A stretch of 62,916 bases of DNA, counting the filler, from Stramenopiles sp. TOSAG23-6 (lineage: Eukaryota): assembly GCA_900128565.1 (NCBI GenBank). It is 10 parts of 10 records of this genome, joined end to end, with 100 filler letters (N's around TTAATTAATTAA, not from the genome) between each part and the next. Parts side by side here need not be neighbours in the genome. Positions count along the whole stretch, not along the records: positions 1 to 9,472 come from LT636367.1; positions 9,573 to 19,013 come from LT636368.1; positions 19,114 to 28,534 come from LT636369.1; positions 28,635 to 38,054 come from LT636370.1; positions 38,155 to 47,570 come from LT636371.1; positions 47,671 to 57,070 come from LT636372.1; positions 57,171 to 58,532 come from LT639170.1; positions 58,633 to 59,994 come from LT639171.1; 2 more parts are not named here. The stretch is one strand, 5' to 3'. How positions within the stretch are numbered: position 1 is the first letter of the stretch; each line of letters opens with the position of its first letter. Position numbers and translations under genes: made by a program. The notes beneath the pieces were generated by a model, which was given only the letters and a program-made list of their open reading frames with translations, searched no databases and was not told where the DNA came from. This document shows, in pieces, positions 57 through 61,332 of the stretch.

Positions 57-1958
57 TATACAGTTGTATACGTCCAATCAAACTCGTATGTTTTCGTTTT
101 CCCATCTTTTACGTATTGTGAAAAAATATTTCAAATTTATTTTTGTTAGGTACAAAGTTTCATATAAAAATATTTTCAGGTAAAACTTTTGAAATGACAA
201 CGTACACAACTTGTTTTCCAATTGGACAACTGAAACCCTTATCTTTCCAATGAGCTGCGGCTGGAACTTTAAGATTTCTTTTTTCCTTTTCTTCGGGTGT
301 TAAACTCACAAAACCTGTCTCTTCAAGCCCTCCCTGTGCTGTCATTTCCAATGAAAATGATGTCAAATATTCAACTTTTAGAAAATTATTTCCAAAAACC
401 ATTTCAGGAAAATCGAAATCACCAATACCCTGGCCTCTATCAAAGCCTGCACAAATAGCAGAGTGGAGAACTTCTAGTTCGCTCGATGAAGATAATACTT
501 TATTCTTACAACACGAAATCTTCCATTTCCCAATATGAATACCAGAATCATCAGGAAGGAGATTATATGATGGTGATTGTGAATTGTTCACAATAGAACC
601 AACAGAAAATATCTTTGGTGTTTTTGATGTTGAAGGATCTGATTCATTAGGAGAATTATTAAGGACACTTTTACTATTATTCTCGTCAATATTTATATAA
701 TTACCTAAAGATAACCACGTTGTAGTCTGAGACTTGGAACTTGATGAACATTGTTTTTTATCTTTACGATTATTATAGTTTGACGAACCAAATACATCTG
801 AAAAATAATTTTTCGGTGCACGAAAATTTGTTATAAATGGTGACGTCATTTTTGGTACCATATTTGATGTATCAGTCAATGTTGATGATTGAGTACGCCA
901 TGCAGCGTGGAATATTGACCCAAANAAAAAATGTTGTACTACAGGAAATTTGCCTAAAACTTCACCTTCAAACATTTTACTTAAACCAGAATAAATTTTC
1001 ATCCAAACACCAATTCGACCTTTTGATTTCGCTAGTTTATATAAAATAGGGGAAGTTTCATTAAATGGCGCCCCTGTTTTTACAGTCTGTACAAATTGGA
1101 CGGCATCAAGATACAAATATTTATGCGAATAACAATCCATAATTTCCTGACTTAAAACTGATCGAGGTTTTATCATAGGGTGATTCGCTAGCTGTGCAGC
1201 TCCAAAAAGAAATGGTAAAATGTTATAGTCATCAAGACTCCATGAAATGTGAAAAAAAAAAATTGGATAAAAAATTCGTTAGGTAGAAAATTTCATACGA
1301 AAAATAATAAATTTGAAATCCATGATGAAAATGTACAAGCTCCATGAGACCCCGCTGGTTCCAGACCATACAATCTCATAAGTTTACGAATCAATTGGAT
1401 ATATACAGGGAATACTTTTAGACCAATGTATGTGAGGTCATCGCGTTTTACTATTTGAAGTTTGTATAACGAACACAACCAAATTGCAAACGCTGCTTCA
1501 TGGCCAGTGCCATAATCTATACGGGTACTGTTCCCAAAGGAGACCATCCAGTAAGCAGCAAGCTCCGCAGCACAAGAACAAGATATATCTGATGTGGCTT
1601 TAGTGTTTGCATCTTGCTTAAAAGTTGAGCCTTGAATAATCTGTTCCATTAATGACAAGGCACATTTTTCCATGGCAGTTGACCAAGAACGGAAAGCTTT
1701 ATTACCAAAACGTTGAGCAGTTTTTAAAGGTGGATGTTCGTCCGTTAAATTACTTATCGTAGACAATGCTGAGATTATACGCAAAACTACTTCACCGATC
1801 ATACCCTTTTCAAATTTATAGTCTAACGGCTTTCCGGCAATGGCTTCGGAGACAAGTTTGATAAATTGGAGAAGCTGCGTCCTTGCTTCACTTTTTTCCC
1901 AATGTACCATGTCTGCAGGAGAACCGATGGCACGACTTGGTTTCTGAAAAACAGACAT
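57..1958 (-). CDS. PTPA (PP2A activator) fused to a TIP41/TIPRL domain; multi-exon, 3' end runs off the contig
   Basis: PTPA motifs RFGNKAFR, FGNSTRIDYGTGHE, LEPAGSHGA|WSLDDY and KFPVVQHF, then an S/N-rich linker, then TIP41 motifs PEMVFGNN, LKVPAAAHW and YEFDWTYTT. Introns 1242-1336 and 111-205. Confidence 0.85.
111..205 (-). mobile_element. Introner-like intron, GT...TAC-GT (TSD GT)
   Basis: GTT GT|GTACGTTG...CACAATACGT|A AAA GAT. Removal puts TIP41 DWTYTT in frame. Confidence 0.8.
1242..1336 (-). mobile_element. Introner-like intron, GT...AT
   Basis: GCT T|GTACATTTT...TTTCAT|GG AGT CTT GAT GAC restores conserved PTPA SHGAWSLDDY. Confidence 0.85.
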
Positions 1959-2324
1959 TACAGAAGTTTAACAAATGTATACGACAATATATACCTGCTA
2001 AAATATACCACACTGAGTTTTTAAGACAGCCGCTGCTCAAAGGTGCTTCGCTGAATGCTGGCACCAAATCGAGACTTCGACTTTGACAAGTTTGACAGCA
2101 ATAATTTTTTGACCGAGCGAGCCGACGAGCAAATTTTCGAAATGAATAATGAATACCTTGCACTAAATATGATATTTAATATAAAATGATTACATTGTCA
2201 ATGTTACTGTCAGAATGATTCTTTGACATTACAAAATAGAGATTGTGATGTCTTACCTTTTATGATAACTCTTTTTTTACCACCAGTTTTTAGATAAAAC
2301 AAAGTTCTTTCATATCCAATTTAA

Positions 2325-3178
2325 ATGTTAACTGTACAAGTTGGTCAGTGTGGGAATCAATTAGGAACTGAAATTTTTTGTTCTGTTGCAGATGAGTTGA
2401 AAAAACCTCGGCCTCTCGCAATTCCAAGTTTTGATGAATTTTATCGTCGTAGTGTTGAAAGTTTTTTCCGTGTAGACTATGATCATGACACACGATCAAG
2501 AAGAATTGGAACTGGAAATGATGGCAGGTTAATTGCAAGATCAATATTAGTCGATACAGAGCCTCGCGTAGTTGCAGGTTGTTTTGCAGCAGCAGAGCGG
2601 AAGGGTACGTTTAAATTTGATCATCGTAATGCAGTTACTCGTGAAAGTGGCTCTGCCAATAACTGGGCTCATGGTTACTGTTTGCACGGTCACACATTGA
2701 GAGAAGAGGTTGTTGAACTCGCACGACGTGAAATTGAGCTTTGTGATTACTTTGGTGGTTTCCATATACTTATGAGTGTTGCCGGTGGAACTGGGTCTGG
2801 CGTCGGAACTTTTCTCACAGAAACTTTACGGGACATATTTCCGTCACCGCGTATTTTAAATTCAGTAGTTTGGCCATATGATAATGGCGAAGTAATTGTC
2901 CAAAACTATAATGCATTATTGACACTATCAAACGTACGTTTTATATGAATTTCCAAATTATTTTTTTTTCATACGAAATTCCGTACCTAACAATTTTTTT
3001 TGAAATATTTTTTCACAATACATGTACAAAACGTTTCTGATAGTATTTTAGTTTTTGAAAATGACCACATTCACGAAATGTGTCGAAAGCTTTATCATAT
3101 AGATAAGCCTCGATTTTCAGATATGAATAACGTGATAGCACGGCATTTTTGTTCCACTTTTCTTCCATCATTAGACAT
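2325..3178 (+). CDS. TUBD1: Delta-tubulin, N-terminal part (no continuation after the second intron)
   Basis: QVGQCGNQLG, SILVDTEP, SGSANNWAHGY, SVAGGTGSGVG and GEVIVQNYNALLTLS|VQNVSDSILVFEND are characteristic of delta-tubulin. Confidence 0.85.
2934..3023 (+). mobile_element. Introner-like intron, GT...TAC-AT
   Basis: TCA AAC|GTACGTTTT...CACAATACAT|GTA CAA AAC restores the tubulin frame. Confidence 0.85.
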
Positions 3179-3280
3179 GTATGTTTTTTTTAATTTTTTT
3201 TCAATTTCGAATTTTTTTTTTCATACGAAATTTCGTACCTAACAATTTTTTTTTTTTTGAAATATTTTTTCACAATACGT
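3179..3280 (+). mobile_element. Introner-like copy at the point where tubulin coding stops
   Basis: Full family consensus. The downstream sequence is not tubulin. Confidence 0.7.
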
Positions 3281-3647
3281 GTATGGAATGATAACCTAGA
3301 GTCTTGGGGATATGTCCTTTTATCACTCCACGAATGTATCATCTTTTTTGTTTTGGTACACGTCATTGACTTGGTTAGGTTACATATATTTCTAATTCAT
3401 ACAAAACAATCTACTTATTCCTATTTAATGGCACTAACAAAAAAACAAACTGCACTTCGTCGAGCAAGACGAGAAGAAAAGAAAATAAATACAAACAAAC
3501 AACANGTTATTCCTGATGATGATATACCTACGAAGAATACTGATGAAATGAAAGAAGTTATTTCTGATGATGATATACCAACAAAGGAGGATAAAGATGT
3601 GGACTCTGTATAAATCCATTATAATAGTGCATCAATAAATGAATACC

Positions 3648-3911
3648 TTTTTATTCTTGAAAACATTTCAAAAGTTTCTTTATTTTTTTTTATTCTTGAA
3701 AACATTTCAAAAGTTTCTTTGGTTTTTTTTATTCTTGAAAACATTTCAAAAGTTTCTTTGGTTTGTTTATTCAATAAGTGATTAATTAATATAATAATAA
3801 TTNATTATTTAGTTTGTTTATTCAATAAGTGATCAATTAAAATAATAATAATTCGTTATTTAGTTTGTTTATTCAATAAGTGATCAATTAATATAATAAT
3901 AATTCGTTATT
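3648..3911. repeat. Two adjacent AT-rich tandem arrays (3 copies each)
   Basis: TTTTATTCTTGAAAACATTTCAAAAGTTTCTTT x3, then GTTTGTTTATTCAATAAGTGAT(C)AATTAA...TTATTT x3. Confidence 0.85.
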
Positions 3912-3915
3912 TACT

Positions 3916-5311: not shown

Positions 5312-5859
5312 GTGAACTCAAATAAGGATCAAAGTCAAAATAAATGGAATTTCATACACAAATATGAAAAGAATACACGTTTAAATTTGTTGTCTCGAAA
5401 ACAAGTAAAGAGAGTAGGCCTATAGAGTGCTTTGCATCTTCTTTGTTTTTTTAACCGACGCCGTTAAAAAAAAAAAACAGCTAGGGTTAGGGTTGTATGA
5501 ATACACCACGTGTCAACAATCAGTCGACATGAGTAACAACAACCACTTCGGGCGGCTGCAATGCTGCAGCACGGGGGATCTTTTGGCTAAGAGCTTGACG
5601 ATGACATGACTATCACACTGTCATATTTAAACGATGTATAATGATTGAGTCTTGAAGATTGCATTGTAGGTGTGATGAGATTGTAAAATGTGATCTTGTT
5701 TGAGATATGTTCATTCCATTATAAAAGGGTGTTAAAAATTATCGGGAATACATTTTATTTGATCGAGATAAATTTTATTTGTTTTACAATGTACAATTAC
5801 TATATATCATGCTTGCACGTGTGATATTGTTTGTATGTAAAGCGGTTTTGCAAATTGCG

Positions 5860-8800
5860 TCAACGGATTTTTCGTAGAGGCAATTTTTTTTTTTGCATTA
5901 CTTTGGAGAGGTTTCCGGTTGATGGATCACATTTGTACATCTCACCAGGTTGCTGAAGCCAGTGGGTGTTTGTCGTCAGTGCTACATTTACATTGTTGTT
6001 TTCTTCGACGATGATGACAATATCGTCTTTTCCTATATTGTGGTAGTTTGTATTTTTTTCGTTTTGTACGCCTGGGCTTTTATGGTGGAATGTCCTATAG
6101 TGTTGTTTACTGTCATGTAGTAGGTGGATGTCGACTTTATGTTGTTTAGCCGCCGAACTTAAGAAGTCTGCTGTGTTTGATTGTTTGTCTTGTGGAATAC
6201 TTTTTATTATAGTCTTTGTCGTTAGATGATGATTCGGATGCTGCTCATTTTTTATGTTAAATGCAATTGCCTCTGCAAACATGTGTATCACATTCTCGAC
6301 TCTTCTGCATGGGAACAGATGCCGCTGTAAAGTAGCTACAGTTTGTTGTAGGTTTTTATTCACTTTGCCTTGACGTATGCGTCCTTTATCACTTTCATAA
6401 AACTTGTTGATTGCTTTTTGCGGTCGTGGCTTTCTGCTACACGTCCTTTTTGCTGGTGATGGCGACATGTGGATGTGAAGACGTTTACGTTTTAGTGGGG
6501 TGGGAGGTGCTTTAGATTTTTTATGTTGCGTAGTTCTTTGCATGGACTGCCGCCATTTCTCGCGCCTTTCCCTCTTTGCTGCTTCTCTTTGTTCCTTTTT
6601 ATCTTTTAAAAACTTAATCCGTGCTTGTTGCCTTTCGTGTTGCTCTTTTTCCTTTCTTTCCTGAATTTGATGAAGTTTCTTCAGTGCGTTCTGTTTTAAT
6701 AGGTTACATTTTTCTTGTATTGCTGCACTTTTTAAAATGATTTGTGTTTCATTGGTGTTTGTTTTCATGATAAAGGTTCTTCCTGATGCAGTTTTCAGCA
6801 TTGTGTCAGCTTGAATAGCTTCTAGATGCGCCTCTAGTGCTAGTATGTCATACCTTGCTTTTGCAAGTTTTTCCGCGTCGAGTGGGCGTGATAGCATTAA
6901 GTCACCAAGTCGTCGGCATCTGGAAGCGCCGGTGTAGGCCATACTTTGATATGGGCATGGTAGTTTCTTTGCTGAACATTCTCGTCCTATGAGTTCGTCA
7001 AGTGTTAAGTGTGATAATAGAAATGCATCTAGACTCATTCCCTGTCTTGAGTGGATGGTACCACAGAAATTCTGAGCTATTGGAACTTGAAACACAGATA
7101 CGTGTACAATACCAGCACCGCAGCACTGTAGTTCTTGTTTGTTCCAGTGCGGAATAACGATAGTTTGGCCTTGTGGTAGTCCTGGAGTTCTATAATGTTT
7201 TGTGTGTTCAAGCTGGTGTTCCAGAATAATGCAGTCTACATCTAATGCGAAGACGTAGTGGACACACTCTTTCTGATCCCACATGACTGACGCGTTTGGT
7301 TTTAGTATGATATCTACTATCTTCACAGGTACTCCATTCTTGTGGGCAGAGTCATTCGCATGGTTTTCGAGAAATTTGTACTCGCCGCCGGCAATGCAGC
7401 GCAAAACTGGTGCAAGATGTGGATTTAGATTCTTTTCCGTCATGTATTTTAGATAGTATTGTGCATCTTTTAGTCTTTGTCTTACTGAGCCTTTTTTCGT
7501 GTGTCTTACATTTGCGACAATCTTTAGAAAGCCTCGTTGTCTCCAGTCTTGCACACTTGGTTCTGATGTGCTTCCGCCTTCTGCATGTACATGTTTTCCA
7601 GCTGCTGCATTCCTGCAGTTGAATGTATGGTAATTAAGCCTGTCTTTTACAGCTTGGAAAGGGACGCCTGCTCGTAGCTCACTTTTGCAGTAGTGGACGA
7701 AGATGTTGTCGCCACTTACTGCTTCCACGGCGGCAGTAAATGATATTGGTTGTTGTCGCTTGGGTATTCCGTGTAGTCGTTCTTTTCGCTCTTTTTTAGT
7801 TTCGCACTTGGGGATGTGGTACTTTGCGCTTTTGAATATACATTGTCTCGTTGTGCAGTTGTCTGTTGGGCGTGAGTATATTTCGATCCATGTTTGTCCT
7901 TCTTCAAAGTCTGCATGAAGGTCAGTTTGACATCTCCATATATTATTCAAAATTTCACCGTTTCTACACCATTTGGTCGTACTTCCTTTTGTACTACCTG
8001 ACATATACCCGTTAGTGCAGAAACCAATGTTTATGGTGTCGTCATTTTCTGTTGAATGTGTTAGTCCAATAACTGCATGGGTTTGGTTAGCACTTGAATC
8101 AGTTTGTGTCTTATTTAGTATAAACGGCCATAAACTGTTCCCACGACGGTGACACCCTCCAACTTTCAGGAAGTGACCTCCTTTGTCCTTGGCAGCTGCA
8201 GCGCAGTATCCTTTGCGTGTTGACGTAGATGTAAAGAGTTGTGCATTAAACCATCCTGGATTTACTTTTCCTTGCTCATCGTGTATTGAACATGAATTAA
8301 GTGCATCAATATCATCATCTGTCAAGGTCGACGTCCTCATTCGTGAGAGGATGTCTTGTAAAAGATTGTCATGTAGCGCTCTGTAGTTTTTGTCTAGTAC
8401 GACAGCTGTGTTAATTCCTAACCGCGACACAGTTTCTTGAAATTCGTCAGTTCGGCTTCCTAGAAAAAGGTCTGCACCGCGAGATATCTTGCGCGTCCTG
8501 CATGTTTTTTCTATACAAGCATGTAGAGGTGTTCCACCGCTTGGCGGTAGCTGATGAAAGCCTGCTACAAGGACGACGTGGACTCCACCCCAGGGTCTTT
8601 CATAATCGATTGTGCTGTCGCAGTCTGAAGGTGGCTCACATGACATACGTTTGAGTTCTTTTACTTGACTTTCCAAATGATAGAGATCCTCAAGCGACAG
8701 CATTGAGGCCTCGTCAATAATTAATGTTGTGACTGCTGACCACTCTTCCAGTCGTTCGTTGTATTTTTTCCGCGCGGCTTGTGATTTTGGTATTTTGTAG

Positions 8801-9366
8801 CCGCCATTCTCTTTGTCAGGGATTAGTCCTACAGCTGAATGCCATGTACGCCCCCGGATCAGACACCCTGCGAGTCCGGTTGTTGCAGTCAACGCAAGGC
8901 TGTTGTCAATACCCCATAGTCTTGCAAAACGGTGAACTTCGTCAATTACGTTTGACTTTCCTGTACCACCTGCCCCACTTAATACCATGCGCAGGTGGTG
9001 TGTTTTGTAGTTGTTGTAGTTTTTCACGTTTGACCACATTTTCTTTGTGTAATCGATCTCAAAAGTCGATTCAAGAATAGCTTCCATGGCATACATTTCG
9101 GACACTTGTAGGGTGTATTTTCTTGCTAGTGATAATAGCATTGCTCTAGCTATATGTTCGAATGCGACACATTGCTTGCCCTCTAGTTGAGAATGTTTTA
9201 AGAAATGTGAAATTGACGGACGCGGTCCCATCTGGACGCTCTGTCTCGTTGAGGTTGCATCATCTAATTTCTGGTCTGTATGATTGTCAGTCGAAGGTTG
9301 CTGTAACAACTTCTGGTCTTCTGCTTCTGTCCACAATCTCATGCCCTCTGATCTTAACACCTCCAC
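5860..9366 (-). CDS. PIF1-family (SF1B) helicase, Helitron-like, 5'-truncated
   Basis: LSGAGGTGKS, TATTGLAG...GRTWHS, LIIDEASML, PWGGVHVVL..FHQLPP, NYRA, TIHSRQGMSLD and AYTGASR. Intronless and more GC-rich than neighbouring genes. Confidence 0.75.
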   Translation of the reverse strand: MEVLRSEGMRLWTEAEDQKLLQQPSTDNHTDQKLDDATSTRQSVQMGPRPSISHFLKHSQLEGKQCVAFEHIARAMLLSLARKYTLQVSEMYAMEAILESTFEIDYTKKMWSNVKNYNNYKTHHLRMVLSGAGGTGKSNVIDEVHRFARLWGIDNSLALTATTGLAGCLIRGRTWHSAVGLIPDKENGGYKIPKSQAARKKYNERLEEWSAVTTLIIDEASMLSLEDLYHLESQVKELKRMSCEPPSDCDSTIDYERPWGGVHVVLVAGFHQLPPSGGTPLHACIEKTCRTRKISRGADLFLGSRTDEFQETVSRLGINTAVVLDKNYRALHDNLLQDILSRMRTSTLTDDDIDALNSCSIHDEQGKVNPGWFNAQLFTSTSTRKGYCAAAAKDKGGHFLKVGGCHRRGNSLWPFILNKTQTDSSANQTHAVIGLTHSTENDDTINIGFCTNGYMSGSTKGSTTKWCRNGEILNNIWRCQTDLHADFEEGQTWIEIYSRPTDNCTTRQCIFKSAKYHIPKCETKKERKERLHGIPKRQQPISFTAAVEAVSGDNIFVHYCKSELRAGVPFQAVKDRLNYHTFNCRNAAAGKHVHAEGGSTSEPSVQDWRQRGFLKIVANVRHTKKGSVRQRLKDAQYYLKYMTEKNLNPHLAPVLRCIAGGEYKFLENHANDSAHKNGVPVKIVDIILKPNASVMWDQKECVHYVFALDVDCIILEHQLEHTKHYRTPGLPQGQTIVIPHWNKQELQCCGAGIVHVSVFQVPIAQNFCGTIHSRQGMSLDAFLLSHLTLDELIGRECSAKKLPCPYQSMAYTGASRCRRLGDLMLSRPLDAEKLAKARYDILALEAHLEAIQADTMLKTASGRTFIMKTNTNETQIILKSAAIQEKCNLLKQNALKKLHQIQERKEKEQHERQQARIKFLKDKKEQREAAKRERREKWRQSMQRTTQHKKSKAPPTPLKRKRLHIHMSPSPAKRTCSRKPRPQKAINKFYESDKGRIRQGKVNKNLQQTVATLQRHLFPCRRVENVIHMFAEAIAFNIKNEQHPNHHLTTKTIIKSIPQDKQSNTADFLSSAAKQHKVDIHLLHDSKQHYRTFHHKSPGVQNEKNTNYHNIGKDDIVIIVEENNNVNVALTTNTHWLQQPGEMYKCDPSTGNLSKVMQKKKLPLRKIR

Positions 9367-9368
9367 CC

Positions 9369-9472
9369 GCTTTCATCAGCTACCGCCAAGTGGTGAAACA
9401 CCTCTACATGCTTGTACAGAAAAAACATGCAGGACGCGCAAGATATCTCGCGGTGCAGACCTTTTTCTAGGA
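9369..9472 (+). repeat. Inverted, slightly diverged copy of helicase segment 8458-8561
   Basis: 104-nt reverse-complement match with 3 mismatches. Encodes FHQLPPSGETPLHAC...DLFLG. Confidence 0.85.
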
Positions 9473-9572
9473 NNNNNNNNNNNNNNNNNNNNNNNNNNNN
9501 NNNNNNNNNNNNNNNNTTAATTAATTAANNNNNNNNNNNNNNNNNNNNNNNNNNNNNNNNNNNNNNNNNNNN
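9473..9572. other. Artificial contig linker N-TTAATTAATTAA-N
   Basis: Identical 100-nt linkers with six-frame stops also occur at 19014-19113, 28535-28634, 38055-38154, 47571-47670, 57071-57170, 58533-58632, 59995-60094 and 61456-61555. Confidence 0.97.
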
Positions 9573-11123
9573 ACTCTTGTACTACTTGAAGGTGATCTCT
9601 GTTTTATATGACTTGTTTCCTTCATATGAGTAGTAAGAGGGATATCACGTGTACGTGAGCGTTTTGGATATTTTGGAGTCATATGCCTCTTTCTTCTCGG
9701 TGGGAGTGTTGGTTTTGGTTTATACCCACTTTTAATATATAACATTCCAAATGCATCTCTTCCATTTCTTGCATGTCTTATCATTTTACGTCGTTTCTTT
9801 ACATGTGATTTGAGTAATGTACTTCTTAGAAATTGATGAAAATCTGTCGAACCTCCATCAAGTAAATGTCTTATTTTCGTTTTAATTTCAAGTAAATCTT
9901 GTTCCATTTTTAAAATTCTTGGCAATCTTTGTTTGAATACATCTCTTCTTGGCAATCTTTGTTTGAATACATCTCTTCTGTTAAACTTTTTTTCAGCTTT
10001 TATTTCAAGACGAATTTCTTTTGCATGTGCTTTCCATTCATTTAGTAACTTCATACGTTTCATTGTAGAAAATATATCATTTTTTGTAAAAAAATATTTC
10101 AAACATTTGAAATCGTTAGGTACGAAATTTCGTACGAAAAAAAAATAAATTTGAAAAAAAAATAAAACGTACATTTTTTCTTCCGTCAAAAAAAGAACGC
10201 CTCTCCTCAAGACGTTTAACTCTGTTTGAAAGAACATTTTCTACTTTTCCATCTCTTCCATGTACTACTTTTTTAAAATTTTCTTCAGCATTGTTCATCT
10301 CTTTATTCACAAAATCAGCAGATATTTTTATACCATGTGAAATTGAATCTTTTATTGCCTTTATATTTTCTTCAGCATTGTTCATCTCTTTATTCACTAC
10401 ATCAACTGTTTTTTTCCTCATTGCCTTTATATTTTCTTCAATATTGTTCATCTCTTTATTGATAGCATGCAATGTTTGTTCTCCACTGTCCCTTATTACT
10501 CTTTGCATAGCATTTTCAGTCGCCCTCAGCTTGGATTCAGCATAATTCAACTCTTTTGTAACAAAATGCGCCGCTTGTTTTGTACTGTTTGCTACCATAG
10601 TTTTGGATTTTTTAATACCTGAACCAACTTGATGCAACTCTTTATTAAGAATCGTTTTGGATTTTTTAATACCTGAACTAATTTGATGCAACTCTTTATT
10701 AAGAAAAGGAACGACTTTACTTTTTTGTTTAGTTTTCAGTTTCTTATCTGATTTTTGAGATGTTTCAATTTTTACACTAGAACTCGATTTTTTATCGTCA
10801 TTTTCGAGAGCTTTACCAGGATGATCAGATGGTGGAGACAATCCTCTCATTCGCGCATATTGTGCTTGCATATGTTGATACGTAGCTATTGCTTTAGACT
10901 CTTCTATAGGATGATGTTTGTTTACATTTTCACCTTTAGTCGTTGCTTTACTTGAAGTATTTATGTTCTGTCTTGATTTTGGCTTACTACCATCACTTGA
11001 AGAGTCACTCTCGAAAGAGTCATTCTTGAAAGAATCACTCGAAGAAGTGTAACTACTACCACCATTTGAAGTAGACCCTTCTTCAGCTTTGGAACTGGAA
11101 TTTTTCGGATTACGCGATGACAT
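9573..11123 (-). CDS. Hypothetical protein: S-rich N-terminus, helical NKEMNN repeats, basic C-terminal part; 3'-partial
   Basis: ORFs 10116-11123 and 9521-10237 join in frame (AAA AAT|GAT ATA) after removing intron 10079-10173. Confidence 0.65.
10079..10173 (-). mobile_element. Introner-like intron, GT...AT (TSD AT)
   Basis: AAT|GTACGTTTT...TTTACAAAAAAT|GAT. Confidence 0.75.
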
Positions 11124-11450
11124 AAATACAGATACACTAAAGTTCTTAAAGTTCTGTATATATTCTTAAGAATAGATGAGATTCTTACTAAAGATGGGTG
11201 ATTGGTTTTGTAACGCTGCGGCACTGGATACTACTACTACTACTGTACTGGTCGCTTGTAAAAAGAAACTCAATTTTTCGTCAATTTTTCTGAAACGGAT
11301 CTTTCAAAAATCACGAAATATAATAAAAACCATGTCTTCGGGGATAATAAATCTAAAAAAATATAATCAAAAATCGACATTTATTGTGTAAATAGTATAT
11401 AATTCATCAAAGTTGAATCTATTTTGGATGTCCAATAATGACAGTCAAAA

Positions 11451-13338: not shown

Positions 13339-13443
13339 CGTGAGAAGAGGGAAAACTCTATAAATAAAATTCTCTCTCGAGTGTCTCTTTCAAGTTGAAC
13401 TTGACGTCGTAATTATTTTTTTCTTTTTTTTCGCGCAACGAAA

Positions 13444-49080: not shown

Positions 49081-50249
49081 TTAATCTTCACCAGTTTCGA
49101 GGGCGCTTGCACCAGAAATAATTTCAATTAACTCGGTGGTAATACGTGCCTGTCGAATTCGGTTATACGCCAATGTAAATTTCTCAATCATCTCCTCAGC
49201 ATTTTTTGAGGCGTTTTCCATAGCTGCCATTCTTGCAGACTGTTCAGCAGCGTTACCATCAATAATCGCACCATAGAGACTACCAGCCATAGCAAACTCA
49301 GAGAGATTCATCAACGCTTCAGATTTATCCTCTGGCTCAAATTCATAGTTGAATAAATGTTTTGGTGTTGCATCAAATCCNGGTTCAGCATCTGGTGGAG
49401 GAGTCATATTTTTTAAGTGCATTTTCTGCTGTTCGTACGCAATCATACTGACGTAATGATTATAAATAATAGTACATTCATCATATTCAAAATCCACCAG
49501 ACGCGCGGCAAATCCTCCGCATGTTCCAAATGTAATTGGAACTTTGCAATGTTGGTCAACAGAATACAAAATATCTTCACCATGAGTCCGGTTCAATTGC
49601 CCTCTGCCTTTATCACCAACAGTAACGATTTTGACATCGTGACCTTGTGATTTCAACTCATCCACATAAATACGAGTCTGTTTTGCCACCTGAGAGTTGA
49701 TACCGCCACAGAGACCACGATCAGCGGAATTACAAACGACCATGTACTTTTTTGGTCCGTCTGAAGTATCAACTACATCTTCATCTTCAAAGTCTGCAGG
49801 AGGTTGCATAGTGCGAGAAAATATGGAGCCAAATGCTGCCCCATCATTCATCTTTTCCTCATCATACTTCATGCGGGCAGCGGAAACCATTTTCATACTG
49901 TTCTTTGGAAAAGACGTTAACAAGTTAAAAAATAAGTTCTTTAGAATTCAGAATATTTACCGAGTTTGACTAGATCAATATCAAAACAATTCAAACATAG
50001 ACACATATAGAAATAGAGAGTAACACCGAAAAAATGGGAAAACAAAGTAACAAGATAGAGACTGCAGTGGAAATAAACGCGTAAGAAGAAGGAAAATGCA
50101 ACTTACCTCTTGGTAATCTTTGCGATATTTCCAGTTGCTGCAATACGATCACGCATTTCCTTTTCAGATGCGAATCCACGCGCAACAGTAGCACGAGGCG
50201 CCATTGACGCAACGCAACTACGACTAATCATCGCTGTCCTAGAAAGCAT
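49081..50249 (-). CDS. ATP3: Mitochondrial ATP synthase gamma subunit, 2 exons (canonical intron 49898-50106)
   Basis: KITKS|MKMVSAA, ADRGLCGGINS, EQSARMAAMENASKNA and RQARITTELIEIISGA. Confidence 0.95.
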
Positions 50250-50516
50250 TCTCGGTCAATGAAGTTTACTATACTAATATGGACACAGCGCGAAAGACAT
50301 GCGGTTGTCGTTGTCGGTCGAATGTGACACAATTTTTTGATAATGTGCACGCGTTGACCACTTTAAAATCCTAAAATTTCGTGTAGGACGTGTTGATGAC
50401 ACGTGGCAAAAATGGAGCGAGTTTTGCATTCTCGAATTAATTCATAAACATTTTTAATTTTTTAAAATATTTCATATTAGGCAAGATCACAATTAACGCA
50501 AAAAACACCACAAGAA

Positions 50517-51482
50517 ATGACAACCAACGTGCCTGTTGGCCGAAAGAACCAAAAAACGATGACACAGCTTGACATCAGCGCACTCAATCTAAAAGCAGAT
50601 GATAACGCTAAACTAAAAAACTTCATATCACAACTCGATGCAGACGGAAATGGCAAATTAGACGAAGACGAAGTTGTACAAGCTGTAATATCGATGTTAT
50701 CTGATCAACAATCTGCAAAGAGGTTACGCTTCTACACGATTATTGTAACAACAATTTGTTTTGCTTTGTGTGCTGTTGTATTCGGATTATCGTTTGCAGC
50801 AACTGAGGTGAGTAAAGAATGTTTTGTAAAGGACAAAGCATTGAAAGATTCGAAAGGAAATGTCGTCGCTTCTCGACGGCAAGAGTACGTTGTCAAATCG
50901 TTCGCGAAGCACGATGATTCGACGGATACAATAACCGTTGACATAAACCAAAATGGGCGACGATTGGCAACCGAAACAAGAACTTTGGTGGGTTTCATAC
51001 CTTGCTTAGAAGTTACAAGTGCAATTGAGAGACTAAAGGAAGGCGACCATACNGTAACTGTCCCACTTGAGCTGCCACAAGGTAATGGAATCGTCAATAA
51101 TCTAAACCTAGAGCTCACTGCAAAAGAAAGTTGGAGTTCACCAAATCAATTTGGTATAGCTGATATAAAAGAATCCTCCGATAGAGGAGGCCCATATTCT
51201 GTTGTTTGCAACGTTAATACTTGTCACAATAGTCAAACAGGCACATGCAAAGTGTATTCAGGGCGGATAGAACATCGTCGTAGGCTACAAAAATTGCAAG
51301 GAAATACAGAGATGAAACAAGATATTGATCTTTTGCATTATCTTCACTCGAAGCCAGAAGAAACCAAAGCAGAAAGAATCGAACGTTACATGAAATTCAG
51401 CGCTGCTACATTTGCTACAATTGCAGCAACTTCTGCTGGATTATCAGGACGAATCTTACAACCACAACGTGGAAGCTGTTGA
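50517..51482 (+). CDS. Single-pass membrane protein with an N-terminal EF-hand and RRL motifs
   Basis: DADGNGKLDEDE; TM segment IIVTTICFALCAVVFGLSFAA; GRRLA and RRRLQ. Confidence 0.7.
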   Translation: MTTNVPVGRKNQKTMTQLDISALNLKADDNAKLKNFISQLDADGNGKLDEDEVVQAVISMLSDQQSAKRLRFYTIIVTTICFALCAVVFGLSFAATEVSKECFVKDKALKDSKGNVVASRRQEYVVKSFAKHDDSTDTITVDINQNGRRLATETRTLVGFIPCLEVTSAIERLKEGDHXVTVPLELPQGNGIVNNLNLELTAKESWSSPNQFGIADIKESSDRGGPYSVVCNVNTCHNSQTGTCKVYSGRIEHRRRLQKLQGNTEMKQDIDLLHYLHSKPEETKAERIERYMKFSAATFATIAATSAGLSGRILQPQRGSC

Positions 51483-51747
51483 AAGTTGTAAACTTCTTCT
51501 GCATTATCCGGACGAATCTTAAAGAACGGAGGAACATGTTAAAATTTATCAAAGTAAAAGCTTGGTTGATACGACCTAATACATTTTTTTTTCATACGAA
51601 ATTTCGTACCTAACGATTTTTTTAACTATTTTTTTTTTCTTCCGTCTCCAGTACTATCAAGATTGTTATAAGTGCATATACAACACACACCCAAGAGTAG
51701 AACAAAGCTGTCGATAATACAAAAATCTAATCTAAAAAATCAATTTA

Positions 51748-52993: not shown

Positions 52994-53258
52994 TAAATTG
53001 ATTTTTTAGATTAGATTTTTGTATTATCGACAGCTTTGTTCTACTCTTGGGTGTGTGTTGTATATGCACTTATAACAATCTTGATAGTACTGGAGACGGA
53101 AGAAAAAAAAAATAGTTAAAAAAATCGTTAGGTACGAAATTTCGTATGAAAAAAAAATGTATTAGGTCGTATCAACCAAGCTTTTACTTTGATAAATTTT
53201 AACATGTTCCTCCGTTCTTTAAGATTCGTCCGGATAATGCAGAAGAAGTTTACAACTT

Positions 53259-54224
53259 TCAACAGCTTCCACGTTGTGGTTGTAAGATTCGTCCTGATAA
53301 TCCAGCAGAAGTTGCTGCAATTGTAGCAAATGTAGCAGCGCTGAATTTCATGTAACGTTCGATTCTTTCTGCTTTGGTTTCTTCTGGCTTCGAGTGAAGA
53401 TAATGCAAAAGATCAATATCTTGTTTCATCTCTGTATTTCCTTGCAATTTTTGTAGCCTACGACGATGTTCTATCCGCCCTGAATACACTTTGCATGTGC
53501 CTGTTTGACTATTGTGACAAGTATTAACGTTGCAAACAACAGAATATGGGCCTCCTCTATCGGAGGATTCTTTTATATCAGCTATACCAAATTGATTTGG
53601 TGAACTCCAACTTTCTTTTGCAGTGAGCTCTAGGTTTAGATTATTGACGATTCCATTACCTTGTGGCAGCTCAAGTGGGACAGTTACNGTATGGTCGCCT
53701 TCCTTTAGTCTCTCAATTGCACTTGTAACTTCTAAGCAAGGTATGAAACCCACCAAAGTTCTTGTTTCGGTTGCCAATCGTCGCCCATTTTGGTTTATGT
53801 CAACGGTTATTGTATCCGTCGAATCATCGTGCTTCGCGAACGATTTGACAACGTACTCTTGCCGTCGAGAAGCGACGACATTTCCTTTCGAATCTTTCAA
53901 TGCTTTGTCCTTTACAAAACATTCTTTACTCACCTCAGTTGCTGCAAACGATAATCCGAATACAACAGCACACAAAGCAAAACAAATTGTTGTTACAATA
54001 ATCGTGTAGAAGCGTAACCTCTTTGCAGATTGTTGATCAGATAACATCGATATTACAGCTTGTACAACTTCGTCTTCGTCTAATTTGCCATTTCCGTCTG
54101 CATCGAGTTGTGATATGAAGTTTTTTAGTTTAGCGTTATCATCTGCTTTTAGATTGAGTGCGCTGATGTCAAGCTGTGTCATCGTTTTTTGGTTCTTTCG
54201 GCCAACAGGCACGTTGGTTGTCAT
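53259..54224 (-). CDS. Mirror copy of the EF-hand membrane protein
   Basis: Identical translation to 50517-51482. Confidence 0.6.
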   Translation of the reverse strand: MTTNVPVGRKNQKTMTQLDISALNLKADDNAKLKNFISQLDADGNGKLDEDEVVQAVISMLSDQQSAKRLRFYTIIVTTICFALCAVVFGLSFAATEVSKECFVKDKALKDSKGNVVASRRQEYVVKSFAKHDDSTDTITVDINQNGRRLATETRTLVGFIPCLEVTSAIERLKEGDHXVTVPLELPQGNGIVNNLNLELTAKESWSSPNQFGIADIKESSDRGGPYSVVCNVNTCHNSQTGTCKVYSGRIEHRRRLQKLQGNTEMKQDIDLLHYLHSKPEETKAERIERYMKFSAATFATIAATSAGLSGRILQPQRGSC

Positions 54225-54491
54225 TTCTTGTGGTGTTTTTTGCGTTAATTGTGATCTTGCCTAATATGAAATATTTTAAAAAATTAAAAATGTTTATGAA
54301 TTAATTCGAGAATGCAAAACTCGCTCCATTTTTGCCACGTGTCATCAACACGTCCTACACGAAATTTTAGGATTTTAAAGTGGTCAACGCGTGCACATTA
54401 TCAAAAAATTGTGTCACATTCGACCGACAACGACAACCGCATGTCTTTCGCGCTGTGTCCATATTAGTATAGTAAACTTCATTGACCGAGA

Positions 54492-55660
54492 ATGCTTTCT
54501 AGGACAGCGATGATTAGTCGTAGTTGCGTTGCGTCAATGGCGCCTCGTGCTACTGTTGCGCGTGGATTCGCATCTGAAAAGGAAATGCGTGATCGTATTG
54601 CAGCAACTGGAAATATCGCAAAGATTACCAAGAGGTAAGTTGCATTTTCCTTCTTCTTACGCGTTTATTTCCACTGCAGTCTCTATCTTGTTACTTTGTT
54701 TTCCCATTTTTTCGGTGTTACTCTCTATTTCTATATGTGTCTATGTTTGAATTGTTTTGATATTGATCTAGTCAAACTCGGTAAATATTCTGAATTCTAA
54801 AGAACTTATTTTTTAACTTGTTAACGTCTTTTCCAAAGAACAGTATGAAAATGGTTTCCGCTGCCCGCATGAAGTATGATGAGGAAAAGATGAATGATGG
54901 GGCAGCATTTGGCTCCATATTTTCTCGCACTATGCAACCTCCTGCAGACTTTGAAGATGAAGATGTAGTTGATACTTCAGACGGACCAAAAAAGTACATG
55001 GTCGTTTGTAATTCCGCTGATCGTGGTCTCTGTGGCGGTATCAACTCTCAGGTGGCAAAACAGACTCGTATTTATGTGGATGAGTTGAAATCACAAGGTC
55101 ACGATGTCAAAATCGTTACTGTTGGTGATAAAGGCAGAGGGCAATTGAACCGGACTCATGGTGAAGATATTTTGTATTCTGTTGACCAACATTGCAAAGT
55201 TCCAATTACATTTGGAACATGCGGAGGATTTGCCGCGCGTCTGGTGGATTTTGAATATGATGAATGTACTATTATTTATAATCATTACGTCAGTATGATT
55301 GCGTACGAACAGCAGAAAATGCACTTAAAAAATATGACTCCTCCACCAGATGCTGAACCNGGATTTGATGCAACACCAAAACATTTATTCAACTATGAAT
55401 TTGAGCCAGAGGATAAATCTGAAGCGTTGATGAATCTCTCTGAGTTTGCTATGGCTGGTAGTCTCTATGGTGCGATTATTGATGGTAACGCTGCTGAACA
55501 GTCTGCAAGAATGGCAGCTATGGAAAACGCCTCAAAAAATGCTGAGGAGATGATTGAGAAATTTACATTGGCGTATAACCGAATTCGACAGGCACGTATT
55601 ACCACCGAGTTAATTGAAATTATTTCTGGTGCAAGCGCCCTCGAAACTGGTGAAGATTAA
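54492..55660 (+). CDS. ATP3: Mirror copy of ATP synthase gamma (intron 54635-54843, GTAAGT...ACAG)
   Basis: Identical to 49081-50249. Confidence 0.85.
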
Positions 55661-57170
55661 TGTTGAGACAGAAATGCTATTTTCAATTTATCTAGACAGA
55701 ATATAGTAAATTTGTTACATCTTGTTGTTTTTAATCATGTTTATTTTGTTTTAATAATTCGAATGCAAATAGTTTTTTATTTCAAACTCTCCGTGTGTAA
55801 TACAATACATTTGAATTAGCCTAGCTATCTGTAACCAATATTAGGTACGGAATTTCGTACGAAAAAAATNAATGTTAATTCACGACACAACGATATAATT
55901 TTTTTTGTATATATTAACGCCGATGTAAAAGATTCGCTTTACGTTCTTGTAAACGCTGAATCAATTCTGAGTCTACATCACTTACAAAAGAAGTAACCGA
56001 TGTTGTTGTAAATGAATTTGTTTGCTTTACTTCATAGTGCTCTTTTGACTCACGAGAGACTCGCTCAAGCCATGATGAACAATGGATGATTAAAAAATAT
56101 TTCAAAAATCTAAAAAAATTTGTTAGGTACAAAATTTCGTACGAAAAAAATAAATTCGATATTAGAATGAAAACGTACATATCCAACAGTTTCTGTGTTT
56201 GCAGGTGGTTTTAAGTCGATCGATCGTTCGGGTGGATCACTTGGTGTAGTAATTAGACCATCTCTATATTTCACAGTGAGATGCTTCCAAAATTTAATCC
56301 AATCATCCACGTGATGTATTTTGGAAAAATATTTCAAAAAAATCTAAAAAAAGTTGTTAGGTACAAAATTTCGTATGAAAAAAAAAATAAATTTGATTTT
56401 TTTGTTAAAAAAAAAAAAAATAAAACATACATTGTCTCCAGTAGTAACAGAAAATTGTGTAATTAAATCTACAACTTTAGATATTTGTGAATTTGTATTA
56501 TTTGATTTTTCATTTAAAATTTTCATCGCTTGTTGGTCAATCCTCGCTACATCTTTGAAATATTGACGTTCAACATTAATAATCTTTTTTTCTACCTCAG
56601 GAGCAATTAAATCGTAACGTGAATAAACTAAATTAGCAACTAAATTATGAATCCAATATGTATTGTGAAAAACAATTTAGAAATACGAAAAAAAACAAAT
56701 TAGCAACTAAATTATGAATATAAATAATATGTATTGTGAAAAACAATTTAGAAATACGAAATTCGTTGAAAAAAATCTGCAAAATCTGTTTGTATACAAT
56801 TCTCATTGTAGAACAATATAGATGATAACTTCATGATGAAAACGTACAAGCACTGTGTAAGACAAACGTATCTGTATCACCATTACCATGTGCATATGAA
56901 AAGGGTATTGCCGTAATAGCAGAATAAATAGGAATTCGTACCATATGTGTAGGATCATCGACCCCGAACCAAGTAATTGCAGTCAACGGGTATATATTTT
57001 GAAAAAATATTTCAAAAAAAAATCGTTAGGTACGAAATTTCGTACGAAAAAAAAATCGAATTTGAAAAAANNNNNNNNNNNNNNNNNNNNNNNNNNNNNN
57101 NNNNNNNNNNNNNNTTAATTAATTAANNNNNNNNNNNNNNNNNNNNNNNNNNNNNNNNNNNNNNNNNNNN

Positions 57171-58632: not shown

Positions 58633-59994
58633 ATTCTAACTGCCACTGTACCATTTTGGCTGACTGAGAATCATTAGATATCTCGTCACGTAAGTAAATA
58701 GTGACAGCAGGAGTTTTGATAGTTTTTGCAATATTAATAATTTCTTTTAGTCGAGGGACACCAAGAGTGACATTTTTCGCCGAAACACCAGCAAAATGAA
58801 AAGTATTCAAAGTCATCTGAGTTGCAGGCTCACCTATACTTTGCGCAGCAATGACTCCAACCACCTCACTAGGGTTAACTCTAGCTGTCAAGTAACGTGA
58901 TAAAATTTCTCCGACGACCCATTCAAATGATTCCGTCGAGAGACGATATTCATGCAGAACTCTTTTTGATGCCAATTTTGATCTCACAAGAATGTGGAAT
59001 AGAATAGTAGCGTTGTGTTGTGCTTCAACGGATAAACCATCTTCGCCAGGTACTACAATACATTTAGTTAACATATCGCGTACAGCATAGTACACGTCTA
59101 CAGGATTAAGATCCGAAGGCTCATTAAAATCCACACCAAAACTTCTTTGAGCATTTAAGATCAATCTATTGATATTCACAGGCAAAGGCAAATTCGCGTC
59201 GGACTCACGACCAGATTCACGACAACACATAACTTCACGAAGTACACCTCTGTCTTCCTCAAGTTCTTCAATTTCATCATTTAATACTTGTTGTTTATCC
59301 GAATCATTTCGGATATCTTCTAGAACTTCTTCAGACATATACACTACACCGCCGCGCTTATCATCACGACCTAACCTAGATGAATTAAAATTAAATTTAA
59401 ACATCGCTTTGAATTTCGCACGGCTTAATTTCAGAGAATCGAAATATTGATTTTCAATCCAGCGACCATCCATTCCATCTTCGCCATACAAAAACTGAAT
59501 AATTTGACCACGACTATTTCTCACAGTTCCATCATACTTCACCTGAACATCTTCCATCGATTTCACAAGACGACGCTTAGAGAAAAAAATTTTGTTGACT
59601 TCAAGTTACCATCATTCTATAGTTCAAGGATTCGCGCTCGATTGCGTGCAGATGCGTGGGTCGTTAATTTGCGAGACAGGTGTGTATCATTTTATGATCT
59701 AGGTTTGCGTATGGCAAAATTGAAATTCATGATGAAAACGTACACCCATTGCATGAAAGAAAAACTCTTGTGGTGTTAATCCTTTCAGATAACTGTTTTC
59801 AACAAATCCTCGAGATGCTGAACCAAGATCATCTTTTGCAAAATGAGGTAATGTTCGATAACTAAATCCGTATGGTATGCGTTTCCCTTCAACATTTTGC
59901 TGACCAACACAAGCAATTACTTGGGATATATTAATAAAAGAACCTTTAGACCCAGCTGTTACCATTGCTTTCATATTATTTGTTTCATCAAATG
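58633..59994 (-). CDS. RPB1: RNA polymerase II largest subunit, internal fragment
   Basis: [52 protein letters not shown] and [39 protein letters not shown]. Confidence 0.95.
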
Positions 59995-60144
59995 NNNNNN
60001 NNNNNNNNNNNNNNNNNNNNNNNNNNNNNNNNNNNNNNTTAATTAATTAANNNNNNNNNNNNNNNNNNNNNNNNNNNNNNNNNNNNNNNNNNNNACAAAA
60101 TTTCGTACGAAAAAAAATCGAAATTGAAAAAAAATAAAACATAC

Positions 60145-60807
60145 ATGGTTGGGCGAAGCTGTAAAACCACCACGAGGACTCATATATCTAGAGCTCATCA
60201 GTGGCGATTGATTGTCTGGAATACGAATACATTCCACAACTTGTCCATTAACTACCTTGACTTTGGCCCAGTAGGTACCGGTCGTCATAGCTGGAGATAA
60301 CGGGAGAAAAGGTACACTTTCAACGGACATGTTAATTCGTCCATTTCCGTTATTATTTCCTTGGAGTCTTGGTGACATATTACTATTAGTGTTGACACAT
60401 TGAGGAAATGGCGTCATTTTGTATTTACTACCACTTCTATCGCTGCTTCCACTAAATGTGCGTACAAGTGGGCGCACGTTGCCGTTTGGAGAAAACGTAT
60501 CGCTAGTCTTTCGCTTCTTATTTGAAGAATTCATCGCGCCTTGGTTGCTAGAAGGAGAACCAGGAGAGACAGTTTCCATTTTTATATTGATATCACCAGT
60601 ATCAGCAACATCTTTTGTAGCTAATTTACGACGGTAACCTGACAAGCATGCTGCTTTGGACTCAAATATGCCGTGGTCTCCAACTTGCTCGCCATTGAAT
60701 TCTTTTAACGTAGTGGTCGTTGACTGACTTGGAACAGTCGTTTCAGCTATCATAATTATGAGAGGTTTCTGAACCACGTAGACAGATGTTTTATCAATAG
60801 ATGTCAA
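60145..60807 (-). CDS. Hypothetical S/P/N-rich protein, first exon
   Basis: Open frame ending at a family donor (AAC CAT|GTATGTTTT, 60144). Confidence 0.45.
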
Positions 60808-61226
60808 TCAGCCCGATCAATACTGAAATTAAGTATAAACTCCTTCAAGTCAAACAAAATCTCAACAAAAAGAATCAAGCTTACCGGTTATTAGGAGAAC
60901 GGTTATCAGACACCTTCTCAGTTCTATGAAACGGACGATGTCGATGTATAACGGTCGTCGAAACGTTTACCCGGAAACAGTCAAAAATCATATTTCGTGG
61001 AAGGTACCGGGTAACCACCAATTTAAAATTGTATGACAGATGACTATTCTAATAAAAAGTACAATGTTTCACTTGATACCGCAATTACTACGAAAAATCA
61101 ATTAAAATCAATTAAAATCAATACAATTTTATAACGTAAAATGAAAATGAAAAGACTTATTGTTGTTTACACTGTTGTTCTCCATTTTCATCGTCCTTTA
61201 TTTCATTTTTTTCGCCTGATGTCATC

Positions 61227-61332
61227 ATGTATTTTGGAAAAATATTTCAAAAAAAAAAATCGTTAGGTACAAAATTTTTATAAAAAAAAAAATAAATTCG
61301 ATTTTTTTGTAAAAAAAAAAAATAAAACGTAC
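61227..61332 (-). mobile_element. Introner-like intron (TSD AT) in the 3' fragment of an unknown gene
   Basis: GAC AT|GTACG...AAATACAT|G ATG ACA. Confidence 0.72.

Follow-up and report, generated by a model that had tools for sequence, protein, structure and literature searches.

A repeated intron-like element with U2-type donor and branch signals and no AG acceptor in Stramenopiles sp. TOSAG23-6

The window analysed here, a 62.9-kb gapped scaffold of Stramenopiles sp. TOSAG23-6 with 35% G+C, carries many copies of one short element that begins with GTAYGT and ends two bases after a terminal TAC (TAC+2). Our data support the view, put forward in an earlier reading of the same sequence (the original prediction), that these elements are removed before translation, exactly from the GT to TAC+2 and without an AG, because removal restores the reading frame, because nine junctions were checked by homology and because one spliced RNA contig was found. 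We consider it probable that the element is a transposon-derived intron (introner) which is removed by the major spliceosome without an AG, with its 3′ cut set by a conserved 3′ block. What is new is that splicing would end after a duplicated dinucleotide whatever its bases, an AG not being needed.

The original prediction counted about 45 copies by hand and suggested building a profile. An nhmmer profile seeded with 11 clean copies and run on the 63-kb window gives 49 matches at E<0.05 and 50 at E<0.06, in good agreement with that figure. Six of the matches sit in an inverted duplicate (53.1–57.1 kb, a copy of 47.6–51.7 kb), the removal of which leaves 43 distinct copies at E<0.05 and 44 at E<0.06. 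Further element fragments (halves) adjoin scaffold gaps. When one mismatch is allowed, the motif GTACCTAAC is found 54 times where 6.75 are expected, a count of 54 being reached in 0 of 100 shuffles. Twenty-one full copies aligned with MAFFT are 88–117 nucleotides (nt) in length and share pairwise identities of 57–94% (median 0.75), and their consensus matches that of the original prediction. Three near-invariant blocks stand out against the 75% median identity over the rest of the element: GTAYGTTTT at the 5′ end, TTTYGTACCTAAC in the centre, and ATATTTTTYCAMAATAC followed by two bases at the 3′ end. The left arm of an apparent palindrome, CGTACGAAATTTCGTAC, varies freely with no compensating changes, so the palindrome is not a conserved hairpin. 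A scan of viral contigs for the central motif gave 0 matches.

The donor has GTA in all 21 units, G at +5 in 18 and T at +6 in 21. The branch motif TTTYGTACCTAAC is conserved and is followed by a T-rich tract. The conservation of GTAYGT and CTAAC is that expected of splice signals, in line with the earlier assignment. A U12-type intron has the donor /RTATCCTT and a branch site about 10–26 nt from its 3′ end. That donor is found in 0 of the 21 units, all of which start with GTAYGT (or with NNGTAYGT in a shifted register, considered below), and in units with a clear CTAAC the distance from this motif to the end is 33–57 nt, which does not fit U12-type branch spacing. The element thus has U2-type signals, namely a donor fitting U1/U6 and a branch motif with pyrimidine tract, and lacks the YAG 3′ end of that type. 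Its orientation follows the genes: a flanking open frame of at least 100 codons lies on the element's own strand at 25 of the 44 distinct matches (E<0.06) and on the opposite strand at a single one, where the sense frames are longer. The sense orientation in coding exons that had been noticed by eye is thereby borne out.

For the frame test, the cut was made from the G of GTAYGT through TAC+2 and the longest flanking frames were joined. As first scored, 19 of 25 units restored the frame. Two more, 1242–1336 and 11503–11671, are also in frame once their variant ends are anchored, both being confirmed by homology, and 47894–48083 is in frame when the second of its two 3′ blocks is used. The total is 22 of 25 units (binomial P = 2e-8 against a 1/3 chance).

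Nine junctions were placed by homology, five of them in RPN6, one in PTPA, one in a tubulin-like gene and two in a FAD-oxidase gene of the gulonolactone-oxidase kind (GULO-like). RPN6, spliced by the TAC+2 rule, was aligned to 105 full-length homologues; one of its five junctions has extra residues within 3 positions in 1 of the 105, and the other four show no insertion or deletion in any of them. The closest relative, P0122 (63% identity), agrees with the junctions. In PTPA, exon 1 ends at residue 194 of the human structure PDB 4lac_B, and the split codon T|GG encodes the conserved W195 of the GVWGLDD motif. The exon junction of the tubulin-like gene falls at about beta-tubulin residues 191/192, and both junctions of the GULO-like gene are gap-free against P0242, which is 57% identical. 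The original prediction held that conserved motifs are restored in PTPA, RPN6, NDUFAF3 and C69 genes. This holds for PTPA and for RPN6 at all five junctions; in the NDUFAF3-like (PF04430) and C69-like genes it is the frame alone that is restored. The C69 assignment itself is weak (E 0.016, under the Pfam cut-off), and Pfam was rejected as support for that junction since the match is too weak.

Contigs from three seawater RNA runs and one independent seawater DNA run (X3) were placed on positions 9573–19013. In the poly(A) metatranscriptome run X8, a 303-nt contig (record 20) joins position 11807 of RPN6 to 11744 and skips 62 nt; it matches 11929–11807 and 11744–11671 back to back, at a depth of 9.4 and with no mismatch. 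The joint slides over a 4-nt repeat, CGTG, and none of the five equivalent cuts ends in AG, those that begin with GT ending in GT or AC. RNA contigs also start at 16273/16274, at the end of the 16161–16275 copy (records 14 and 31). RNA thus shows the junction at RPN6 intron 4, and some RNA contigs keep parts of elements. Those contigs may be pre-mRNA or DNA carried into the library, as RNA libraries can contain DNA. In DNA, X3 record 3 (12160–15185) spans the whole copy at 12358–12454, and hence the elements are present in DNA. A protein search with RPN6 exon 1 returned as its only match a DNA-contig protein of 99% identity, and a search with the 41-residue RPN6 exon 3 for longer transcript-derived proteins of the same species found none.

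Excision from DNA, as for the internal eliminated sequences of ciliates, would leave the expressed nuclei free of elements. We regard this as highly improbable. The removal is precise, the borders carry a two-base repeat (described below), and the sole joined contig comes from a library possibly containing DNA. Yet both the assembly and the independent metagenome contig X3 record 3 carry elements in DNA, the joints listed (15 of 202) include no exact excision, and the joined form among them came from a poly(A) RNA library. Moreover, donor and branch motifs would be pointless in such a process, and the borders are AT, not TA. It is more improbable still that the family is an artefact of misassembly, of decayed pseudogenes or of reverse transcriptase jumping between short repeats. 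Conserved proteins are recovered at all five RPN6 junctions and at four junctions of other genes, 22 of 25 units are in frame, and an independent metagenome contains the same element-bearing DNA; these facts stand against a scaffold full of gaps, many of them within elements, a large inverted duplication, and an RNA joint located at a 4-nt repeat, short repeats being the usual site of template switching.

A side observation concerns contig depth. In total 4929 X3 records were placed, with the highest depth in bins that hold elements. Summed contig depth in such bins is about 1000–3000 in the three RNA runs and about 10000–14000 in the DNA run, and in unique bins about 0–10 and about 7.6, respectively. 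This contrast is not a copy number; it suggests thousands of element copies in the community, and also a sizeable contribution of introns or DNA to the RNA libraries.

The last two intron bases in 21 verified units are AT in 17, TT in 2, GT in 1 and AA in 1. T occupies the final position in 20 of 21 and A the position ahead of it in 18 of 21; the final C of the preceding TAC is likewise present in 18 of 21. For 24 of 25 units a first AG downstream of the branch motif could be located, the copy at 20376 (with CTTAAC) being without a value. This AG precedes the cut in four of the 24 (12454, 45641, 48311 and 11671) and lies in the downstream exon in the rest. The original prediction saw no AG between CTAAC and the next exon in almost every complete copy; in the four units named, AGs at −15, −19, −30 and −48 are bypassed, one of them at a homology-checked RPN6 junction. 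Within the composite at 18002–18210, the first copy (18002–18109) ends ..CAATAG, or ..TTTTTTTACTCAATAG, directly before the GTACG of the second copy; this canonical-looking YAG makes it the sole element-derived unit in the window that ends in AG.

The cut is constant solely relative to the conserved 3′ block, two bases after it. The original prediction had tentatively suggested that the 3′ site is defined from the branch point, by distance or by structure. As a ruler, the spacing from branch site to cut was rejected, given its span of 33 to 57 nt, and so was a hairpin or other fold, as the folds of eight of eight copies were no better than those of shuffled sequences (z −1.37 to +1.93) and the left arm of the palindrome changes with no compensation. 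Scanning for the first AT was rejected too, since each unit has 2–6 ATs after CTAAC that come before the used end and are passed over. Translational bypass was rejected, given the spliced RNA contig and the donor and branch motifs.

The cut also coincides with the end of a two-base direct repeat, a feature absent from the original prediction. The two end bases are identical to the two exon bases before the GT in 16 of 26 units, and the remaining ten match at one base. AT dominates on both sides, so the six units with other ends are the informative cases; four of them (GT, GT, TT, AA) equal their own 5′ flank. The permutation P is 0.002 for the 16/26 count and likewise for the 4/6 count. The copies at 19244–19332 and 19333–19421 stand head to tail and share a single AT. 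Judged from the sequence, the repeat is what a 2-bp target-site duplication favouring AT would leave behind. A Helitron-type insertion, placed between A and T and duplicating nothing, was rejected as a candidate, since the GT/GT, TT/TT and AA/AA copies would need variable element ends. Any inverted repeat at the ends is short and imperfect: compared with the reverse complement of the opposite end, 3–7 of 10 bases agree, and the highest value, 7/10, belongs to the GTATGT/CAAAATAC subfamily. A metagenome scan with RPN6 exon 1 found two loci only, L001 and L002, both from a distant relative with 43% identity. RPN6 residues 81–448 form one uninterrupted genomic match there with no element, and hence the five RPN6 introns are not ancestral to both organisms.

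Several observations weigh against removal from GT to TAC+2 and against its link to a target-site duplication. The copy at 3179–3280, in a truncated tubulin-like gene, has consensus ends and does not restore the frame; that at 37504–37603, with consensus ends and an AT/AT repeat, needs 99 nt removed rather than 100; and 111–205 stands outside the 22/25, its frame being open with a next exon of only 48 nt. Among the joints listed (15 of 202), most of which are cross-joins between element copies, one is a spliced RNA contig, and element parts are kept in RNA contigs X7 records 9 and 16 and X8 record 23. The repeat is mostly AT/AT, which an insertion preference together with an AT-ending element would also yield, and locus-specific support for it comes from 4 copies. 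Finally, if both cuts are placed two bases further left, most copies have AT..AC ends.

The last point defines an alternative in which the intron runs from the duplicated dinucleotide (mostly AT) to the terminal ..TAC, so that most copies are AT–AC introns. With a perfect repeat both registers give the same mRNA, and the RNA contig and the frame tests therefore cannot separate them. Counted back from the GT, A stands at the second position in 15 of 21 units and T at the first in 17 of 21, and TAC has its final C in 18 of 21; an A–C end pair is isosteric with G–G, and U2-type spliceosomes can process AT/AC introns according to the available part of PMC13326754. We nevertheless consider the shifted register unlikely, for GTA is invariant (21/21) exactly at the 5′ cut proposed here, and the shift would render the 5′ ends heterogeneous (AT, GT, TT, AA, AC, CT, AG). 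GTAYGT would then occupy +3 to +8, out of its usual U1/U6 register. As to copies with imperfect repeats, both registers give the same amino acid at 2934 and 1336. Copy 12250 is uninformative; the registers give N or Y in a column that reads L 43, D 20, A 9, E 7 and N 6 in the 105 homologues, and Y lies outside the eight commonest residues, a weak point against the shift.

It is very unlikely, in our view, that the elements are removed from RNA by a non-spliceosomal endonuclease and ligase recognising paired intron ends, as proposed for euglenid nonconventional introns. The strict GTAYGT and the CTAAC with its T-tract are what a spliceosome needs and would be superfluous for an endonuclease, the eight folded copies are no more stable than their shuffles, and no compensatory change links the two ends or the arms of the central palindrome. 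The case for such a pathway is that the ends can pair over 3–5 bp (AUGUA with UACAU) with cuts staggered by 2 nt, that this pairing appears in 2 of 8 minimum-energy folds, that one subfamily has 7/10 matching end bases, and that direct repeats also border euglenid and Amoebophrya introns, as the accessible parts of PMC11282704 and PMC7789003 describe.

We therefore return to the reading in which a mobile element is spliced by the major spliceosome, and propose the following course. An element of about 90–115 nt, resembling a miniature transposon, would duplicate two target bases on insertion, most often AT, and DNA transposition would be its means of spread. It would supply its own U2-type donor (GTAYGTTTT, from the first base), branch site TTTYGTACCTAAC and T-rich 3′ block ATATTTTTYCAMAATAC. 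Only insertions into exons on the sense strand would survive, because only those can be spliced out. The cuts in the pre-mRNA would fall just before the G of GTAYGT and just behind the second of the two dinucleotide copies; as the element and one repeat copy are removed, the original reading frame returns. We infer that the spliceosome catalyses this and that a lariat forms at CTAAC. The conserved 3′ block would be recognised by a diverged 3′-site factor or by an RNA contact, which would fix the 3′ cut, and the first and last intron bases would form a G–U pair instead of the usual G–G. More tentatively, and at somewhat below an even chance, the major spliceosome in this lineage is AG-independent altogether, the 3′ cut being set by some 14 nt of intron sequence (UUUUYCAMAAUAC) and two further bases of any identity, with a G–U end pair, and nearly the whole intron complement stems from one transposon family bearing this signal. 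If true, a spliceosome and a mobile element would have co-evolved a private 3′ splice code, with donor and branch site staying canonical.

Table 1. Copies, composites and fragments of the element in the window, with the support for each.
Positions	Strand	Feature	Support
111–205	−	full copy, PTPA C-terminal extension, repeat GT/GT	frame open, next exon 48 nt
1242–1336	−	PTPA intron, variant 3′ block CACATTTC+AT	residue 194 of PDB 4lac_B / W195
2934–3023	+	tubulin-like intron, repeat AC/AT	beta-tubulin ~191/~192
3179–3280	+	full copy, truncated tubulin-like gene	frame not restored by +2 rule
10079–10172	−	degenerate 3′ block (..ACAAAAAAT)	in-frame cut exists, weak evidence
11503–11671	−	RPN6 intron 5, GTAGGT..CACACTAT+AT, two degenerate tandem copies	homologue alignment
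11746–11807	−	RPN6 intron 4, 62-nt 5′-truncated copy	spliced form in RNA (X8 record 20), homologues
11928–12027	−	RPN6 intron 3 (PY|SRV), repeat AT/AT	frame, homologues
12153–12250	−	RPN6 intron 2, repeat AA/AT	frame, homologues
12358–12454	−	RPN6 intron 1, internal AG at −19 bypassed	homologues; present in DNA contig X3 record 3
15915–16014	+	cytidylyltransferase-like gene, degenerate 3′ block	in-frame cut ..TAT+AT, weak evidence
16161–16275	+	full copy, repeat TT/TT, branch to end 57 nt	frame; RNA contig starts 16273/16274
18002–18210	+	composite of two copies	in frame as one unit
18300–18413	+	GULO-like FAD-oxidase intron, repeat AT/AT	TRQGP|SFEVLPFF gap-free vs P0242
18509–18746	+	long composite intron GTAAGT..ACAATAC+AT, internal tandem pieces	..EFH|IPFKHG vs P0242 ..ELHVPLS
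18957–19174	+	copy split by scaffold gap, end TAC+TT	profile match
19244–19332	+	first of head-to-tail pair	frame kept only with both copies removed
19333–19421	+	second of pair, inserted at AT ending first	frame
20275–20376	−	full copy, repeat AG/AT	in frame
20675–20855	−	composite: 3′-truncated + 5′-truncated copy	in frame as one unit
28481–28534	+	5′ half, stops at scaffold gap	fragment beside gap
28635–28704	−	5′ part (GCACGT..), stops at scaffold gap	profile match
33852–33939	−	full copy, large PH-domain gene	in frame, open frames 228 and 247 codons
34486–34576	−	full copy (GTATCT..)	in frame
36307–36407	−	full copy, repeat GT/AT	in frame, open frames 460 and 584 codons
37504–37603	−	full copy, repeat AT/AT	frame not restored; 99 nt fits, not 100
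37735–37849	−	diverged copy ending ..CACATTTT+AT	fragment search
37957–38053	−	full copy ending ..CATAATCC+AT, upstream flank = gap	profile match
38644–38824	−	two partial copies around scaffold gap	profile match
42513–42606	−	full copy	in frame, open frames 572 and 160 codons
45066–45137	+	shortened copy, NDUFAF3-like gene (PF04430), repeat AA/AA	frame
45548–45641	−	full copy, P4-ATPase gene, internal AG at −15 bypassed	frame
47517–47570	−	3′ half beside gap, P4-ATPase gene	profile match
47671–47748	+	3′ part beside gap	profile match
47894–48083	+	duplicated 3′ block, C69-like gene	only second block (48081+2) keeps frame (HSA-Y-WIHNLVAN)
48311–48427	+	full copy, internal AG at −30 bypassed	in frame
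48563–48659	+	copy ending ..AATCATCC+AT	profile match, weak
53116–57063	.	mirror-image copies of elements at 47678–51625	within inverted duplication
60095–60144	−	5′ half beside gap	fragment search
61227–61332	−	full copy, repeat AT/AT	in frame

Apart from the PTPA, tubulin-like, RPN6 and GULO-like genes, the window codes for a P4-ATPase, RPB1, an NDUFAF3-like protein (PF04430), a prolyl-oligopeptidase and a kinase. The gene for mitochondrial ATP synthase gamma is present twice, once in each arm of the inverted duplication; its closest named proteins are from diatoms, a labyrinthulid and a brown alga (41–46% identity), whereas identities of up to 88% are seen with unnamed proteins of marine metatranscriptomes. 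On the strength of this protein, the AT-rich source was taken to be an uncultured marine protist of stramenopile-like affinity. Scanning the whole window with Rfam and for tRNAs gave no match, and the window holds no small nuclear RNA.

The joins at 9473–9572, 19014–19113, 28535–28634, 38055–38154, 47571–47670, 57071–57170 and others consist of an N-run, TTAATTAATTAA and a second N-run. Most of them fall within element copies, so the repeat family fragments the assembly, as a high-copy repeat is expected to do. Genes at these joins are probably mis-ordered or incomplete. The two arms of the large inverted duplication (47600–51700 and 53100–57100) are identical, their elements among the rest, and enclose about 1.4 kb of spacer; the structure may be a true palindrome, or a chimera of amplification or assembly. 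In RPB1 the upstream exon reaches residue 828 of PDB 9mu7_A (..FHAMG) and the open frame after it begins at residue 848 (RRLVK..), with 19 highly conserved residues missing from every minus-strand frame of the 168-nt spacer at 59576–59743. On that strand the spacer has an element-like start, then unrelated sequence of higher G+C, and the end ..TTTCTCTAAG; an assembly error could explain it, as could a missing mini-exon or a broken gene.

The minus-strand open frame at 5860–9372, 1170 codons long, encodes a PIF1-like helicase domain (PF05970, E 2.7e-15) and is free of element copies. It could be a Helitron-like or other mobile gene, and no link between it and the introner family was found. The stretches at 3640–3900, 5481–5495 and 16330–16420 cover tandem repeats of about 40–60 nt downstream of the tubulin-like fragment and short telomere-like TTAGGG/CCCTAA runs. 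These runs are embedded in sequence that is unique apart from them, and several can be read in frame as NPNPN stretches.

Few signals of eukaryotic genes are as constant as the AG at intron ends, and how the 3′ site is chosen in the second step of splicing is still being worked out. In the present family the donor, branch site and pyrimidine tract are textbook and the last dinucleotide alone departs, which isolates the question of what can replace AG. If this dinucleotide is whichever two bases the transposon duplicated, a transposon could become an intron at almost any site, with no need for the target to supply an AG. The family is thus a natural test of how the splicing machinery picks the intron end. 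In practice, gene-finding programs restricted to GT–AG will get most genes wrong in this organism and its relatives, and surveys for introners will overlook families of this kind if they take annotated introns as their starting point.

Known U2-type AT–AC introns are rare single introns and not a mobile family. With the register shifted by two bases the present copies would resemble them, as most would start with AT and end with AC. They differ from them in being a putatively mobile family, and GTAYGT would be out of register.

The original prediction spoke of a candidate novel introner and splicing system. To call the splicing system novel is too strong, since transposon-derived introns without GT/AG ends, bearing direct repeats and short inverted ends, have been published for Fritillaria, Amoebophrya and euglenids. 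What follows refers to the accessible portions of the papers cited. Micromonas, Aureococcus and many others have introners that show duplications and canonical ends (PMC11282704, PMC9860276), and transposon-derived introns whose ends are non-canonical occur in Fritillaria, Amoebophrya, Polarella and euglenids (PMC7789003, PMC11282704, PMC9860276, PMC12130899, PMC5778133, PMC13326754). Those portions of the latter six papers do not describe a family with canonical donor and branch site and an obligatory AG-less end. Our literature search did not find this family, or AG-less introners in stramenopiles; supplements and subscription journals lay outside its coverage, and an earlier description is possible. 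The known large-scale exceptions (Fritillaria, Amoebophrya, euglenids) alter both ends or use hairpins, and are hence hard to interpret.

The introners of Micromonas pusilla and Aureococcus anophagefferens, which are DNA transposons like miniature inverted-repeat transposable elements (MITEs), share with the present element its short length, its many genic copies and a target-site duplication at the borders (PMC11282704, PMC9860276). There too, the element brings splice signals, the element and one repeat copy are spliced out to leave the mRNA unchanged, and exonic copies are biased to the sense strand. However, those introners use a canonical AG, either carried or co-opted from the duplication, and their duplications are 3–9 bp, whereas the duplication proposed here is 2 bp and need not be AG, the ends being AT, GT, TT or AA.

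Introners of the dinoflagellate Amoebophrya are likewise repeated introns with short direct repeats overlapping their borders, an ambiguous cut and non-GT/AG ends (PMC7789003). They carry inverted repeats of 8–20 nt, forming a hairpin that joins the exon ends, and direct repeats of 3–5 nt, and have no common end dinucleotides (PMC7789003); in contrast, the present element has no significant hairpin, a 2-nt repeat and a constant donor. Euglenid nonconventional introns resemble it in non-canonical borders, junction repeats like target-site duplications and short complementary ends, but they need end pairing and are without conventional donor, branch site and pyrimidine tract (PMC11282704), all three of which the present elements have.

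MITE-derived introns of Fritillaria borealis show genome-scale AG-less splicing that is species-specific and bears the marks of target-site duplications and terminal inverted repeats (PMC13326754, PMC11282704). A U2-type spliceosome is implicated there, the 3′ ends are often AT or AC, and Fritillaria has diverged U2AF paralogues (PMC13326754). In Fritillaria, however, both intron ends are non-canonical and very diverse, AG–AC and AG–AT being the commonest (PMC13326754), whereas the element described here belongs to one dominant family, keeps a textbook U2-type donor and branch site, and departs from them at the 3′ end only.

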